Shown here: positions 2,713-44,901 of the stretch, one piece after another | Layout of the letters: each line of letters begins with the position of its first letter | Numbering within the stretch: position 1 is the first letter of the stretch | From: Escherichia phage phiG7 | Sequence record: OQ791410.1 | Length of the DNA stretch: 60,274 nucleotides | Reading direction: 5' to 3' (one strand) | The notes under the pieces: generated by a model | The model's database searches: none | What the model saw: the letters and a program-made list of their open reading frames with translations, nothing else | What the model was told of the DNA's origin: nothing | Made by a program: the position numbers and the translations under genes

Positions 2713-4689
2713 ATGCAGCTCCGCGATTATCAACAGGAAGCAGTTTATAGCGTATTCCGCTATTTTGATGCTGAAAAGGGTAACGCGGGGAACCCTTTGA
2801 TCCTGTTACCAACAGGGACAGGAAAATCGCTCGTTATCGCGGGGTTCCTCGATCTGCTTTATAAATGGTATCCAAACCAGCGCGTAATGATGTTAACTCA
2901 CGTCAAAGAGTTAATTGCACAAAACTATGATAAATTAATGAAAGTCTGGCCGGAAGCGCCAGCAGGTATTTACAGCGCAGGTTTGAAGCGTAAAGAAGTT
3001 TATAATCTTATCACATTTGCGGGGATTGCATCTGTTGCTAAGCATCCTAAAAAGTTTGGCAAGGTTGATCTAATCTTTGTGGATGAAGCGCACCTTATTA
3101 GTCCGCGTGATGCAACAATGTATAAGAAGTTCTTTGCAGCATTGCGTGAAGTTAACCCGTATTTAAAAATTATCGGTCTTACCGCTACACCTTATCGACT
3201 GGGTTACGGCTCAATTGTTAAGGAAAACGAAGACGATGATGCTTTATTTGATAAAGTAACGTTTGATGCGACTACCCCTGAAGCCTTTAACTGGTTCCTG
3301 GAGCAAGGTTATTTGCTTCCGGTTGTGCCAAAGCGTACAAAGATGGAACTGGACCTCAATGGTGTAGGGAAACGCGGTGGTGAGTTTATTCAAAGTGAGC
3401 TGCAAAGTGCGGTGAACCGCGACGACGCAACACTCCGCGCACTTGAGGAAGCCATTGAATGTGGTGAAGACCGTCAAAGCTGGCTTATATTTTGTTCTGG
3501 TATTGAACACGCTAAAGATGCGTGTGATATGCTGAACGATATGGGTATTAGTTGCGGATGTATTCACTCAAAGCTTGATGCAAAAGAGCGTGATGAAATT
3601 ATTGAAAAATTCAAGCGTGGAGAGTTTCGAGCGCTGACGAACAACAACGTCTTAACCACAGGTTTCGACCATCCGATGCTTGATCTAATTATCATGCTTC
3701 GCCCCACTGCCTCGGCGGTGCTATGGGTTCAGATGTTGGGTCGCGGTACGCGTCCGGTATATGCGGAGGGCTTTGATCTTTCCACGCAGGAAGGTCGCTT
3801 GCAAGCTATTGCAGCAAGCCCTAAGCAGAACTGCCTTGTACTGGATTTCAGCGGTAATACGCGTCGTTTGGGCCCTATTAACGACCCTGTTAAACCCAAG
3901 CGACCGGGCGAAAAAGGTGCTGGTACTGCTCCGGTTAAAGAATGCGATGTGTGCGGGTCGTATAATCATGCATCTGCTCGCTATTGCGGTGGCTTTGCAC
4001 CAATTCCTATGGACAGCGTTACACAGGAACAAGTTCAACAATTATATTTGAAGGGATTCAGACTACGTGGAACGGATTATGTTAAAGAAGGATTTTGCGG
4101 TCATGAGTTTAAGTTCCAGACGAAACTTAAAAAGGCAGCAAGTACCGAAGCACTGATCAAACAGGACATTCCGGTAGTTGAAGACTTCAAAGTTACGCAT
4201 GTGACTTATGCGAAGCACACTAAACGCAATGACAGCTCCAAACCTCCAACAATGAAGGTGACTTATTATTGCGGTAGTAAAATATTCAGCGAATGGGTAG
4301 CTCTACTTCATGGTGACTGGGCAGGTCGTAAAGCGGTTGCATGGTGGAAGAAAAGGACGCATCTTCCTTTACCACAAACTATTGAAGAAGCTCTTGATGT
4401 TGCTGCAATGCTTAAAACACCGAAATACATCAAAGTTCATACCAATAAGAAATGGCCTGAGATATTGAACTATGATTATGATGGTACGTGTTTCGGTAAG
4501 TTTGAAGCACCGCAGGACGACGAAGCTATTCAAGTTAAAGTATACGGGCAGGATGGAACAACCGAAGGTCCAAGCTATAACGATGATGTGAGCTGGGATG
4601 ATATTGTTTCGCAGAATACGCAAGGTATAACGGTGAACAATGTGGTTAATCCTGTGCAAGTAGATGATCCGGATTACGTTCCGTTCTAA
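2713..4689 (+). CDS. SF2 DEAH-box DNA helicase with C-terminal zinc-ribbon extension
   Basis: Walker A PTGTGKS, DEAH box (FVDEAHL), LTATP motif; CDVCGSYNHASARYC downstream; ATG at 2713 preferred over TTG at 2707. Confidence 0.7.
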   Translation: MQLRDYQQEAVYSVFRYFDAEKGNAGNPLILLPTGTGKSLVIAGFLDLLYKWYPNQRVMMLTHVKELIAQNYDKLMKVWPEAPAGIYSAGLKRKEVYNLITFAGIASVAKHPKKFGKVDLIFVDEAHLISPRDATMYKKFFAALREVNPYLKIIGLTATPYRLGYGSIVKENEDDDALFDKVTFDATTPEAFNWFLEQGYLLPVVPKRTKMELDLNGVGKRGGEFIQSELQSAVNRDDATLRALEEAIECGEDRQSWLIFCSGIEHAKDACDMLNDMGISCGCIHSKLDAKERDEIIEKFKRGEFRALTNNNVLTTGFDHPMLDLIIMLRPTASAVLWVQMLGRGTRPVYAEGFDLSTQEGRLQAIAASPKQNCLVLDFSGNTRRLGPINDPVKPKRPGEKGAGTAPVKECDVCGSYNHASARYCGGFAPIPMDSVTQEQVQQLYLKGFRLRGTDYVKEGFCGHEFKFQTKLKKAASTEALIKQDIPVVEDFKVTHVTYAKHTKRNDSSKPPTMKVTYYCGSKIFSEWVALLHGDWAGRKAVAWWKKRTHLPLPQTIEEALDVAAMLKTPKYIKVHTNKKWPEILNYDYDGTCFGKFEAPQDDEAIQVKVYGQDGTTEGPSYNDDVSWDDIVSQNTQGITVNNVVNPVQVDDPDYVPF

Positions 4690-17595: not shown

Positions 17596-17867
17596 CTAAA
17601 CAGTCAGGTTAGTACCGTTCTGCCCCTGAATGGTCTGAAGAGTACCGTTGTTAATGGCTTGCAGAATTGCGTTGGTGTCAACAGAAGCTTGAACTTCCAC
17701 CGGACCAGCGAAGTTACCGCGACCACCCCAACCACCATTGCCACCCCAACCGTTACCGATCCAGGAACCAATCAAACCACCGATCGCACCACCAATACCA
17801 GCCGCACCAGCTTCACCGCCGAAACCGTGCCACCGAGATTAGTAGGTAAAAGAGTCATGTCAGACAT
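17596..17867 (-). pseudogene. glycine-zipper, microcin-like small protein (possible double-glycine leader MSDMTLLPTNLGG), reading frame broken after the GG motif
   Basis: RBS GGAG 8 nt before ATG at 17867; frame 1 stops after 31 aa; the adjacent frame is open for 81 codons rich in GxxxG (AGAAGIGGAIGGLIGSWIGNGWGG); one extra G in ACGG would fuse leader and core. Confidence 0.4.
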
Positions 17868-18038: not shown

Positions 18039-19799
18039 TTATGGAAGGTTAGTTTGCTGTGAACCATTCGCTTCTTTTAGTGCAGCTAATTCCGCTTCTA
18101 GGTTCTCCACCTTTTCCATCAAAGCAAGAATTGCTTCATGGTGCAATGCCGCAGCTATACCGGAAGTGTTTACAGACTTCACATCACTCACGGATGAACC
18201 ATTGCGTAAGGTAACAGGAGAGAACTTTGTTTCGGATACTGCTTCAGGGAAATCCTTCTCTACATCCTGAGCAATAAATCCATACCCAACTGACCCATTT
18301 GTTTCCAATGTCCATTTAACGCCTTTAATGTTCCGCATCTTGGACAGTGGATCGTTTATACGCTCAATATTACTTTTAATGCGTTTGTCGGATAAACTTC
18401 TCCATTCTTGGCATTTTGCTATACCGTCCGACCCAAAAAGATAAGATGCAGCTCCTCCGCTTCCGTCATAGACGTTAAGCTGCATCCTATCTAACAACGT
18501 ACTATCGGAGCGAATACCACCAAGAATCCAGCTTCCATCATACCAATCGCCGCTTATAGTGTTTACAAAATACCCTTCTCCAACATTGGCGTAGTTTATC
18601 ATCCTTATGGCGTTTCTTTCTATGGCGCTAACTCCAACGGAGTTTAATGGCTGTGCAAGGAAGTCTTTTGCTCGTACATATGCGTCAACCTGTATTGCCC
18701 CATCACTTCTCAGTGTCCCGATCTGTGACTCTGCGTTTGGAAGGCGCAATGTACCATCCTGACCAAATGCCCATTCCTGAACACCATTTGATAACACCGC
18801 CCCTGATTCGCTGCTCAATCCATCAATCTTTCCGTAAGATTGCAAATACGCTTGATGTGTGGTAGTCGTACCTATCTTGTATTCTGATTTTACACTACCC
18901 CCTCTTACAATTGTTCCAGAAGAAGGTTTGACAGCGTCAGCGTTTATTACACTCCATGCTGTATTTGCCGCAACGAAACCACCTGACGCACGGATTACCC
19001 ACACACCGACAAAGTTTCGTGTAAGAATTTCATCAGTTGATTGTCCGTAAATTGGACTTGAAATTGAGGCATTGAAATCACAGGTGTTATAACGCCCAGC
19101 GAGCACCGCTGGGCCTGGGGGTATACCATCTCCTTTTCCTTCCGGAAATGCATTATTATTTGCGGTAAAACAACCACCTGTATGACCTAATACCTGGCCG
19201 TAAGTTTGAGCGGAATATGTGGTGAAAAAACCTGTAATATTTGGCGCAGCGGATTCGAACAGTTGCCCATTTGCAGAGGAGTTTCCACCATCACCTCGAC
19301 CATAAAGTGCGCGAATGGACCCCTCTTGAACACCGTTTTTATCTGGTACGCGGAAAGTTGTTACTCCGTCGCCAGAGGAATATCTGCCGCGTTTAAATTT
19401 ATTAGACAGCCATTCACTATCATCTATAAGCCCGACCATTTGAGCGTAATTCCATAATTCAGGCCAGTCTGCACGGTTAAGTAATTGCCCGTCCGATGTA
19501 ACCTCATAAGGTTGAACGTAAGCGCGACTATCCCGGAGATGGAAATCCCCTACCCCGTAATTCATTACCCCGTTCATTGTTGGACCAACTGTACCTGTGT
19601 TGATTAAGTTCTCAACCCAACGTTTAGTTGCTGCATCATAATCGCTAACTGGGTCCCCAGCTAATGGCGTAGACCCAATTGGTCGAACGTTTAACCACGC
19701 GGCAGCGCGGTCCGCAAGATCAGATAAATTATTACTTTTATCCATCTTTTCGTCTTTAAGTTTTGTAATGTCCTGAGGGATATTAGTATAAGTAGTCAT
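18039..19799 (-). CDS. tail fibre protein with C-terminal intramolecular chaperone (peptidase S74-like) domain
   Basis: C-terminal SDKRIKSNIE motif and coiled coil typical of self-cleaving chaperone domains. Confidence 0.6.
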   Translation of the reverse strand: MTTYTNIPQDITKLKDEKMDKSNNLSDLADRAAAWLNVRPIGSTPLAGDPVSDYDAATKRWVENLINTGTVGPTMNGVMNYGVGDFHLRDSRAYVQPYEVTSDGQLLNRADWPELWNYAQMVGLIDDSEWLSNKFKRGRYSSGDGVTTFRVPDKNGVQEGSIRALYGRGDGGNSSANGQLFESAAPNITGFFTTYSAQTYGQVLGHTGGCFTANNNAFPEGKGDGIPPGPAVLAGRYNTCDFNASISSPIYGQSTDEILTRNFVGVWVIRASGGFVAANTAWSVINADAVKPSSGTIVRGGSVKSEYKIGTTTTHQAYLQSYGKIDGLSSESGAVLSNGVQEWAFGQDGTLRLPNAESQIGTLRSDGAIQVDAYVRAKDFLAQPLNSVGVSAIERNAIRMINYANVGEGYFVNTISGDWYDGSWILGGIRSDSTLLDRMQLNVYDGSGGAASYLFGSDGIAKCQEWRSLSDKRIKSNIERINDPLSKMRNIKGVKWTLETNGSVGYGFIAQDVEKDFPEAVSETKFSPVTLRNGSSVSDVKSVNTSGIAAALHHEAILALMEKVENLEAELAALKEANGSQQTNLP

Positions 19800-42904: not shown

Positions 42905-43366
42905 TTAAAAACCCTCAAACGATATTGTATCAACGCCAAGAAATGCACATGTAGTATGCTTGATTGCTAGCTCGATAGCTTCGCGTGCGCTTGCACCAGC
43001 AGCTAGAGCACCCGCAGCAAACACGCAGCCACTGCCATCCGACCCCCATCCATCCAGCATGGGTTCGCTCAAAGTACCATCATTATAAATAAAATGGCAA
43101 GTACCTTCCGGAGTAACCGCAAGACCGCAAGTTTGCCCGTAATCATCTTTGCTGTAAAGTTTAATATCAGGGAACTTAACAGGCTCAGGACTATTAAAAT
43201 AACGCAGCACTTGGTCAGTGAATGCAGTCAAACCGCACAAGCCCAGTAAAAACCGTCCACGATGTCCATTTACACTATGAACTTTCTTATAAGCAGTCAC
43301 AGCTTCCCCGCGCATAACTCCACGGTCCGCAGCTAATACTTTTCCATCGTAAGCAATGGTTGTCAT
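42905..43366 (-). CDS. HslV/proteasome-like Ntn-hydrolase family protein
   Basis: N-terminal MTTIA (Thr nucleophile after Met), GDG-like and GSDGSG...SAREAIELAI blocks resembling E. coli HslV by eye. Confidence 0.55.
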   Translation of the reverse strand: MTTIAYDGKVLAADRGVMRGEAVTAYKKVHSVNGHRGRFLLGLCGLTAFTDQVLRYFNSPEPVKFPDIKLYSKDDYGQTCGLAVTPEGTCHFIYNDGTLSEPMLDGWGSDGSGCVFAAGALAAGASAREAIELAIKHTTCAFLGVDTISFEGF

Positions 43367-43548
43367 TTAATTTTCCTTTGGTCTTGGATAATAACAATAC
43401 ATAAAACAAACAGAATAAGACAGATGCACAGTCCTGTACTTGCAAAGATTCGGATAACCGTGGAAGGTTGTTCGACTACTGTATAGGTATAAAGCCCAGC
43501 GAACATTAACGTCGCAAATAAAAACAATTCGGCGTATAGTTTGGTCAT
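43363..43548 (-). CDS. small membrane protein
   Basis: 61-aa ORF with hydrophobic helices. Confidence 0.35.
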   Translation of the reverse strand: MTKLYAELFLFATLMFAGLYTYTVVEQPSTVIRIFASTGLCICLILFVLCIVIIQDQRKIK

Positions 43549-43610
43549 TGTGTACCCCTCTTATTCGATGGGTACACAATACAATGAAGGGTTATCTGAT
43601 AGCAAGGTTT

Positions 43611-44033
43611 TTAATTAAGCACAATCTCAACGTCTTTAACCCAAGTATGAATGATAAATGCTCCTGGCTGTTCAGGATCTTGATCCGGGCCAACGTAGAA
43701 CTTTTTACCTTCCCAACCTTTAATTGGGTCATGTACAATAAACTTGTGATTAGTTGTATCGATCACAACCTGATGCAGTGCTCCAGGAACATTGAGACTT
43801 GGGACAGTGCACAAAAACAAACCACCCATGTATATAGTTTCACGCCCACCGCCTACAGAACAGATGTGGTCAACATTGTTTTGTACTAGATATTCGGAAA
43901 TTGTTATTTCCCAATTGTTGTAATATCGATCATGAAATTCCGCAATTACTTCTTCTACAGGTCTATTAAGGATCATTGCCAGACACGCAGAAACGCATGT
44001 ATTCAATGTTGGTTGCTTGACATGTTTAATCAT
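43611..44033 (-). CDS. C39-like (papain-fold) cysteine peptidase
   Basis: Cys motif QPTLNTCVSACLAMIL and His/Asp motif HQVVID...IVHDP as in bacteriocin-processing C39 domains. Confidence 0.55.
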   Translation of the reverse strand: MIKHVKQPTLNTCVSACLAMILNRPVEEVIAEFHDRYYNNWEITISEYLVQNNVDHICSVGGGRETIYMGGLFLCTVPSLNVPGALHQVVIDTTNHKFIVHDPIKGWEGKKFYVGPDQDPEQPGAFIIHTWVKDVEIVLN

Positions 44034-44034
44034 T

Positions 44035-44505
44035 TTACGCCTCGTATATAACTTCCGGCTCGTTATTATAAGGACGCAGCAGCAAACGCGCTACCAGCGC
44101 CGTACGCTCGCTTAACCCTTGCGGATGCACAAACCCAACAAACTGGTAGTGACAACCGCGCAGGTGGTGCAAGCTCTTAGCACAATGACACGCTTCCAAA
44201 CGAAGTGTCTCGCCCGACTGCCATTTAACCACAATGGTAGAGCTCGCGGTCATGTTAATTTCTACATCACCGATTTCAACCTGAAGACGCAGAACATCTT
44301 CTACAACGTTGCGGACATATAGCAGGATCTGCGATGTAGGCATAACAATGAGCCCATTCCAGTCCTTCCCGCGACCCAATCCGCAATAACGCGCAAAGTT
44401 GGCTATCAACTGCGTTTCTGTAACCTGTTTTACTTCAAACGACTTCTTCAGTTGGCAGTCTTTGGATTCGTCCATTGCATCAACAATAGTTTTAACGTCA
44501 GCCAT
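44035..44505 (-). CDS. hypothetical protein
   Basis: 156-aa ORF. Confidence 0.35.
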   Translation of the reverse strand: MADVKTIVDAMDESKDCQLKKSFEVKQVTETQLIANFARYCGLGRGKDWNGLIVMPTSQILLYVRNVVEDVLRLQVEIGDVEINMTASSTIVVKWQSGETLRLEACHCAKSLHHLRGCHYQFVGFVHPQGLSERTALVARLLLRPYNNEPEVIYEA

Positions 44506-44508
44506 TAT

Positions 44509-44901
44509 TTACTCCGCTAATGTGTAAGGAATACCGGATGCTTTAATCCGTCTGTACATGTCCATAGTACCAGCTCCGCCTGGAAACACAATAGCGTGAT
44601 CTGGTTTGGGATCAGTATCCAGCATTAATTGATTGCGGTAAGCGCCCGCTTGTGCATTATAAGCACCTCTGGCGTTATACCGTATCTTTGTATTCGGTAA
44701 GGAAAGATTGTTCCACGGCGCAGGAAACGCCTCCGTCTTAATACCGTTTCGCTCCGCCCAATGTGCGCAAATGCGGTCAACACCGTCAGCGTCACCGTGG
44801 CGAAGTGTGGTTATCCTTCTTTGCATATGCAGCTTATCCAATTGAGCGTAAATATACTCCACATGCTTAAAATCTCGACCTCCGGTGACGACTAATAGCA
44901 T
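44509..44901 (-). CDS. possible SLOG/DUF2493-like protein
   Basis: N-terminal LLVVTGGRDF motif. Confidence 0.3.
   Translation of the reverse strand: MLLVVTGGRDFKHVEYIYAQLDKLHMQRRITTLRHGDADGVDRICAHWAERNGIKTEAFPAPWNNLSLPNTKIRYNARGAYNAQAGAYRNQLMLDTDPKPDHAIVFPGGAGTMDMYRRIKASGIPYTLAE

Follow-up and report, generated by a model that had tools for sequence, protein, structure and literature searches.

We analyzed a 60,274-nt stretch of DNA from Escherichia phage phiG7 (OQ791410.1; hereafter the window), which is the essentially complete genome of a Seuratvirus coliphage (CAjan-like, Queuovirinae), and followed up a gene on its minus strand at 43611-44033 that encodes a protein of 140 amino acids (aa). 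We found that a papain-type active site is kept under strong constraint in this single-domain, cytoplasmic protein, which is probably active as an endopeptidase in the cytoplasm and cleaves a protein of the host or of the phage. On balance we favor a more specific reading, namely that it is an active, single-domain cysteine endopeptidase of clan CA that works in trans in the cytoplasm and probably cuts one or a few host proteins at a Gly-Gly-type site. We infer all three of the proteolytic activity, the Gly-Gly-type preference and the host-protein substrate. The gene and the residues on which this reading depends are located as follows.

43611-44033, minus strand: coding sequence of the 140-aa stand-alone C39-like cysteine peptidase, phrog_4049 family, homologue of CAjan gp84
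44040-44043, minus strand: Shine-Dalgarno sequence GAGG, 6 nt 5' of the peptidase ATG, read from the sequence
44013-44015, minus strand: codon of Gln7, the predicted oxyanion-hole residue, 6 residues ahead of the nucleophile; invariant in 66 family members and aligned with the Gln of LahT, ComA and PCAT1 and of Cpe1 and StbD
43995-43997, minus strand: codon of Cys13, the predicted catalytic nucleophile, at the N-terminus of helix 13-22; invariant and aligned with the catalytic Cys of C39 peptidases
43791-43805, minus strand: codons of V77-P78-S79-L80-N81, a family-specific motif preceding the catalytic His; at least 90% conserved in the 66-member alignment
43773-43775, minus strand: codon of His87, the predicted catalytic base; invariant and aligned with the catalytic His of LahT, ComA and PCAT1
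43725-43730, minus strand: codons of Asp102-Pro103, the predicted third catalytic residue within a 'DP' motif; invariant and aligned with the D-P of C39 peptidases and the 'YDP' of Cpe1 and StbD

The open reading frame (ORF) starts with ATG and encodes exactly 140 aa. A preliminary description of the window, which named no strand, had proposed a 140-aa C39-like peptidase here on the strength of two motifs, and both were indeed located in the minus-strand ORF, KQPTLNTCVSACLAMIL over residues 6-22 and LHQVVID...FIVHDP over residues 86-103. By its sequence matches the ORF is a real gene and not a chance ORF, because it matches phrog_4049 of the PHROGs database over the full length (E = 1e-55; residues 1-139 on profile positions 2-140 of 145), has 21 close homologues in a word-indexed search, and is represented by 930 clusters at E ≤ 1e-3 (594 of them at E ≤ 1e-10) in an exhaustive hidden Markov model (HMM) search of 1.84 billion representatives, the clusters being formed at 50% identity. 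Phages CSP1C and ECP2304 encode an identical protein (100%), and CAjan gp84 shares about 85% identity with it; the surrounding 4 kb share 91-96% identity with Escherichia phages CSP1C, ECP2304, CAjan and others. The upstream 156-aa gene ends in a TAA (44035-44037, minus strand) 1 nt away from the peptidase ATG, and translation of the peptidase is therefore probably coupled to that gene. Together with the position of the GAGG, this spacing makes the peptidase gene part of a compact array of genes that run in the same direction. Scans for promoters and terminators near the gene returned counts at or below the shuffle expectation and were uninformative.

Nearly all of the best 150 of the 930 representatives are 120-190 aa long. 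The few longer relatives, which match phrog_4049 too, are fusions to unrelated accessory proteins (MazG-like, YunG-like, a zinc ribbon and unknown PHROGs), and none of the fused domains recurs informatively. PHROGs lists the function of phrog_4049 as unknown. The public names that we saw for family members read 'hypothetical protein', save for one 'T3SS chaperone' label, and a precomputed PF03412 label was present on one distant member only. The assignment as a peptidase is thus new relative to the PHROGs and GenBank records for the family.

To assess the putative active site, we aligned 16 homologues down to 32% identity and a broader set of 66 members with 28-62% identity. Invariant positions among the 16 homologues include Q7, C13, S15, C17, H87, D102 and P103; across the 66 members, the sole invariant positions are Q7, C13, H87, D102 and P103. 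The catalytic Cys and His expected from the preliminary description are therefore conserved throughout. Its assignment of the His/Asp pair to the second motif stood for H87 and D102 but not for H101 of 'VHDP', which varies among the homologues; as H87 is invariant and H101 is not conserved, we assign H87 as the catalytic His. The conserved VPSLN motif ahead of it has no equivalent in the aligned C39 sequences of LahT, ComA and PCAT1 and probably forms part of the substrate cleft.

An AlphaFold2 model built with a 16-sequence alignment was of high predicted quality, with a predicted local distance difference test score of 93.9 and a predicted template modeling score of 0.89. It shows three N-terminal helices, the first of which begins at Cys13, followed by a beta-sheet. 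In a fold comparison the model scored as follows.

PCAT1: 9.7
LahT150: 9.4
ComA-PEP: 9.4
PeiR pseudomurein endoisopeptidase: 9.1
Putative C39-like peptidase 3erv: 9.1
Staphopain C: 8.2
StbD/CdiA-CT toxin 8ssm and 8ssk: 8.0 and 7.8, with 19-20% identity
Josephins, UfSPs, AvrRpt2 and the C39-like domain of HlyB: 6.5-7.3

Foldseek against the whole PDB also ranked PCAT1 first, if weakly (E = 2.9e-3, TM-score 0.52), and BFVD returned uncharacterized phage proteins plus a lower-ranked Bacillus phage 'Peptidase C39 domain-containing protein'. A literature search on one structural neighbor, 'P210 lyase', found nothing. The expectation of a C39 or papain-fold match was thus confirmed, the nearest solved relatives in both comparisons being C39 double-glycine peptidase domains. 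The modeled fold provides solid support for a papain-like protein of clan CA that is nearest to C39 and forms, by sequence, a distinct branch.

We then compared the family with C39 peptidases at the level of sequence, taking LahT150, ComA-PEP and PCAT1 from the PDB as the reference set and using a CvaB-like sequence only as bait. The three reference sequences have an invariant Q, C, H and D-P in common. Aligned to this trio with hhalign, the phage family gave E = 5e-5 over 102 columns, with Q7, C13, H87 and D102-P103 in register with the corresponding C39 residues; the conserved Gln, Cys, His and Asp of C39 peptidases are thus present in the 140-aa protein in the same order and spacing. The only Pfam match of the protein was to Peptidase_C39 over residues 3-24, and it remained below threshold (13.7 bits against a cut-off of 22, E = 0.058). 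In a Pfam scan of the 66 diverse members, Peptidase_C39 was the sole recurrent family, with 5/66 at E < 0.01, and 0/66 reached its gathering score. PDB sequence searches with the single protein and with a profile of the 66 sequences returned nothing meaningful and no C39 chain, and there was no NCBIfam match for the protein. The C39 signature claimed in the preliminary description therefore survives as 'C39-like' and not as C39 proper, and the HMM search it suggested gave a match, but below the cut-off. We conclude that phrog_4049 is a separate, phage-specific branch, made up almost wholly of single-domain proteins and a remote sister of the C39 double-glycine peptidases.

The 140-aa protein has no signal peptide or transmembrane segment. 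We place it in the cytoplasm because the nucleophile at residue 13, within the first helix, leaves no space for a signal peptide. It had been described as standing alone without an ATP-binding cassette (ABC) transporter, and this was borne out: the protein is a single domain, and no ABC transporter was seen in the CAjan gene list or at any related locus that we examined. By tblastn the family is present in 196 phage records (Vibrio 53, Escherichia 45, Salmonella 34, Pseudomonas 18, as well as Erwinia, Klebsiella, Providencia and others). The Nonagvirus 9g keeps the order of peptidase, HslV-like remnant and lysis genes. In the Salmonella phage Maynard (Kuttervirus) the homologue, at 3980-4429, lies between the genes for the large (gp39-like) and medium (gp52-like) subunits of a T4-type topoisomerase II and overlaps each of them at one end. 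Pseudomonas phage SM1, Vibrio phage J2, Vequintavirinae and Halocynthia phage JM-2012 carry the gene amid small hypothetical early genes, and metagenomic phage contigs carry it amid genes for DNA polymerase, dUTPase, ligase and exonuclease. A scan of a genome collection with a narrower alignment added seven Pseudomonas loci and one locus in a Methylophaga metagenome-assembled genome; the one of these eight examined in detail, Pseudomonas locus L009, is a prophage-like nin-type region in which the gene lies between Rha/replication genes and NinB-NinG. When we searched the family loci by tblastn with 12 neighbors from the window, neighbors in common were found only within Queuovirinae. Many of the carriers presumably have non-canonical DNA (7-deazaguanines in Queuovirinae, hypermodified thymidine in Kuttervirus, 2-aminoadenine in relatives of VP2 and phiVC8), which may reflect sampling. 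Que genes are present in the CAjan gene list.

In the mechanism that we propose, Cys13 would act as the nucleophile and His87 as the base, with Asp102 orienting His87 and Gln7 forming the oxyanion hole. The enzyme would act alone and in trans, without an ABC transporter, a secretion or delivery domain, an immunity gene or a conserved partner gene. It would be the product of an accessory gene that many lytic phages carry in early or replication-type regions and Pseudomonas prophages in their nin-type region. Inside the infected cell it would cleave one or a few proteins site-specifically, a host protein being more probable than a phage protein, and the cut would fall at a small-residue site of the Gly-Gly type.

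Several points weigh against this proposal. The similarity to C39 lies below the Pfam threshold and, because the PDB profile search was empty as well, the C39 link rests on the fold and the motif register. For a host target, the lack of a conserved neighbor provides negative evidence only. Our literature searches on phage C39 or papain-like anti-defence proteases, Seuratvirus peptidases and stand-alone phage C39 proteins returned nothing on the phrog_4049 family.

The closest functional precedent is provided by the C39 toxins Cpe1, an effector of the E. coli type VI secretion system, and StbD-CT, a CdiA-like toxin of Citrobacter rodentium. Both are C39-fold peptidases that cleave GyrB and ParE between two glycines (GyrB Gly101|Gly102, ParE Gly97|Gly98) without a transporter, and Gln177 of StbD contacts the substrate. 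We aligned the phage family by hhalign with the Cpe1 toxin domain, taken from the genome of strain ATCC 11775, and with the StbD peptidase domain, taken from the PDB; the E-values were 0.011 and 0.0045, respectively, and the catalytic register was kept in both. The single sequences of LahT (E = 3.3e-4) and PCAT1 (E = 0.054) aligned over the N-terminal Gln/Cys segment only. The phage family thus appears to lie at about the same distance from the transporter clade as from the toxin clade, and to form a third branch.

This precedent leads to a broader idea that we regard as unlikely, in which phrog_4049 is a widespread early protease for host takeover or counter-defence, a viral counterpart of Cpe1 and StbD that cuts a single host protein, either essential or defensive, at Gly-Gly, possibly GyrB/ParE. 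We consider it quite unlikely that the enzyme is specifically a killer of host topoisomerases, cleaving the conserved HAGGK loop within the GyrB and ParE ATPase domains and thereby halting supercoiling and chromosome segregation. Cpe1 and StbD prove that C39-fold enzymes can have GyrB/ParE as a cytoplasmic substrate, the HAGGK loop is conserved across gammaproteobacterial hosts, and all named hosts among the phage matches listed are Gammaproteobacteria. In Maynard the homologue is flanked by the genes for two subunits of the phage's type II topoisomerase, and the large subunit of this topoisomerase reads SLYAGSNFND where GyrB reads VLHAGGKFDD, that is, without the Gly-Gly pair. If the target were GyrB/ParE, the placement of the Kuttervirus gene inside the phage's own GG-less topoisomerase II operon would be explained. 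However, YAGSN is typical of T4-type topoisomerase II and probably not a specific adaptation, and among the loci examined the topoisomerase adjacency is limited to the single one from Kuttervirus (Maynard), being absent from those of Vequintavirinae, JM-2012, Queuovirinae, VP2-like phages and prophages. Moreover, with the E-values given above the family is no closer to Cpe1 and StbD than to LahT or the PCAT trio, and Seuratviruses encode no topoisomerase, so that destruction of gyrase might harm them. An attempt to map the GyrB-contact residues of StbD and Cpe1 onto the phage family was dropped, as these are mostly main-chain and hydrophobic-surface contacts at about 20% identity, and we counted this against the model as well.

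Among the other roles considered, counter-defence by isopeptidase activity seems very unlikely. Here the enzyme would remove or clip bacterial ubiquitin-like (Ubl) modifiers, such as those that Bil-type systems conjugate to phage tail proteins or those involved in the priming of CBASS cyclases by Cap2, at the C-terminal Gly isopeptide bond. Such a role is plausible from the fold neighbors PeiR, Josephin and UfSP, the accessory or early position of the gene is typical of anti-defence genes, and Ubl-conjugation defence systems exist in these hosts. However, folds of the deubiquitinase (DUB) type scored below the C39 domains, PADLOC defence profiles matched neither the peptidase nor three of its neighbors, the literature search gave no link, and the sequence carries no indication of Ubl binding, which leaves the model as pure conjecture.

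We give as little credence to a non-proteolytic function, in which the Cys-His-Asp site would deamidate, acylate or transglutaminate a host protein. The top four or five structural neighbors and the sole sequence-profile signal are true peptidases, and the conserved Gln oxyanion residue and the DP motif match the C39 peptidase pattern exactly.

The remaining roles concern phage proteins and the surroundings of the gene in the window, where its neighbors are arranged as follows.

44509-44901, minus strand: YAcAr/SLOG-family protein, preceded by several small ORFs
44035-44505, minus strand: 156-aa protein, phrog_25149 (function unknown), directly upstream of the peptidase
43363-43548, minus strand: 61-aa membrane protein, directly downstream of the peptidase
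42905-43366, minus strand: HslV-like peptidase, two genes downstream
Downstream of the HslV-like gene, minus strand: an 86-aa ORF, then the endolysin, then the holin

The 130-aa YAcAr (YspA/cpYpsA-related SLOG) protein has a predicted nucleotide-ligand-binding domain (Pfam E = 4e-18), and its GenBank labels vary between 'GTP-binding domain' and 'DNA processing protein DprA'. The 156-aa protein gave an insignificant match to DpdG and, by tblastn, a weak match to the N-terminal region of the protein annotated as large terminase in phage 9g (29.5% over 122 aa; E = 5e-7, the database being small). The HslV-like Ntn-hydrolase is a second stand-alone peptidase (phrog_1040, E = 8e-33, with a weak Pfam Proteasome match). 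Its gene is conserved in Seuratvirus, no HslU partner is annotated in CAjan, and in phage 9g it is represented by two separate tblastn segments only, which may be a disrupted gene. Between the peptidase stop and the next gene lies an RNA hairpin (43546-43581, minus strand) with a 12-bp stem, a folding free energy of -20.1 kcal/mol and a z-score of -3.3; 0/200 shuffles folded equally well. It buries the AUG, and probably also the Shine-Dalgarno sequence, of the 61-aa membrane-protein gene. As no T-run follows it, the hairpin appears to be an element of translational control and not of termination.

A role in phage maturation or lysis, in which the enzyme processes a phage structural protein or serves as a cell-wall amidase or isopeptidase in the adjacent lysis cassette, is highly improbable. 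In Seuratvirus and Nonagvirus the gene does lie just upstream of the HslV-like peptidase and the endolysin and holin genes, no prohead protease is annotated in CAjan, and the pseudomurein endoisopeptidase PeiR is a close structural neighbor. Against this, neither a signal peptide nor a transmembrane segment is present in the protein, synteny of the gene with lysis genes is limited to Queuovirinae, other lineages having it near early or replication genes or within the nin-type region of a prophage, and no structural-gene partner co-varies with the peptidase. We therefore rejected both the lysis enzyme and the prohead protease, given the lack of an export signal and a context that is not conserved.

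The preliminary description had also proposed that the peptidase processes a double-glycine (GG)-leader candidate at 17.6-17.9 kb, and this did not hold up. The Gly-rich ORF starts with MSDMTLLPTNLGG at about 17866 on the minus strand, with a Gly-rich stretch after it. Its counterpart in ECP2304 is a 235-aa protein in which a Gly-rich part is followed by a coiled-coil-like and then a Cys-rich one, encoded directly downstream of the tail-fibre gene, and the gene is intact in ECP2304 and in CAjan (gp21). Relative to ECP2304, the window copy has a 1-nt deletion right after the LGG codons (GGTGGC-ACGG versus GGTGGCGACGG) and a premature stop (GAG to TAG) at 17596, beyond which the similarity is lost.

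17596-17866, minus strand: remnant of the 235-aa tail-fibre-adjacent gene, adjoining the tail-fibre gene (18039-19799, minus strand)

In the window this ORF is a decayed remnant, or possibly a sequencing error, and this frameshifted and truncated remnant was the sole candidate for a cognate double-glycine-leader precursor. The 235-aa family occurs in 220 phage records, including T1-like, T5-like and Yersinia phages, and one member is annotated 'lateral tail fiber chaperone'. Its T1-like, T5-like and Yersinia carriers are absent from the peptidase match list, and the Vibrio, Pseudomonas and Kuttervirus carriers of the peptidase are absent from the match list of the 235-aa family. The C-terminus of the 586-aa tail fibre presumably resembles an intramolecular-chaperone (S74-type) domain; if so, a separate chaperone gene may be dispensable in the window phage.

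That the peptidase matures this peptide by cutting after MSDMTLLPTNLGG is barely credible, even though the ORF begins with this sequence followed by a Gly-rich stretch and cutting after GG leaders is classic for C39 enzymes. The Gly-rich gene is broken while the peptidase is intact and identical to its ECP2304 counterpart, the unbroken gene encodes a 235-aa tail-fibre-side protein and not a small secreted peptide, each family is listed for phage groups that the match list of the other lacks, there is no exporter, and the two genes are 26 kb apart. We rejected the candidate substrate because its gene is broken and does not co-vary with the peptidase.

What is already known is the enzyme class itself and, since 2025-2026, the existence of transporter-independent C39 toxins. 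A large branch of single-domain proteins that is specific to phages, has its active site intact and extends over many well-studied phage genera, by contrast, seems not to have been described before. To our knowledge, phage-encoded site-specific proteases acting on host proteins are rare and poorly known. The family described here is large (930 clusters, 196 phage records) and includes phages of Salmonella, Vibrio cholerae, Pseudomonas and E. coli, and its intact C39-type catalytic site, present without a transporter or partner, makes a directly testable enzyme out of an anonymous gene. The 140-aa protein is small, likely soluble and has an obvious dead mutant in C13A, and GyrB/ParE, after Cpe1 and StbD, would be a concrete first candidate substrate. 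If a defined host target emerges, the enzyme would represent a new mode of host shut-off or immune evasion as well as a compact sequence-specific protease; if it merely trims a phage protein, the finding is routine. The value therefore lies in direct testability and not in surprise about the fold.

The phage protein differs from each of the known systems to which its fold relates it. Compared with the C39 domains of PCAT/AMS ABC transporters (PCAT1, LahT, ComA and CvaB; PF03412, MEROPS C39), it is phage-encoded, unfused, without a nearby transporter and without a GG-leader substrate gene. It has Cys-Val-Ser where C39 domains have Cys-Gly, carries the family-specific EFH and VPSLN motifs, and, like all 66 relatives, falls under the Pfam C39 cut-off. 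Compared with stand-alone clan-CA enzymes, that is, 3erv (Peptidase_C39_2 type), PeiR/PeiW (C71), the staphopains and Josephin/UfSP, it has no Pfam match to these families and lacks cell-wall-binding repeats, a pro-region and a signal peptide; the DUB-type folds among them are also more distant from it than the C39 domains by fold score. The papain-fold hydrolases of the cell wall (C71 PeiW/PeiR, CHAP and NlpC/P60) are likewise set apart, as the window protein has no export signal, wall-binding module or Pfam match. In Cpe1 and StbD-CT, finally, the toxin domain is C-terminal on PAAR, Rhs or CdiA delivery proteins, with auto-processing and an immunity gene; the Cpe1 locus itself comprises genes for PAAR-like, DUF2169 and VgrG proteins, with the immunity gene downstream. 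The phage protein shares none of this: it carries no N-terminal extension, and none of its neighbors is conserved across lineages.

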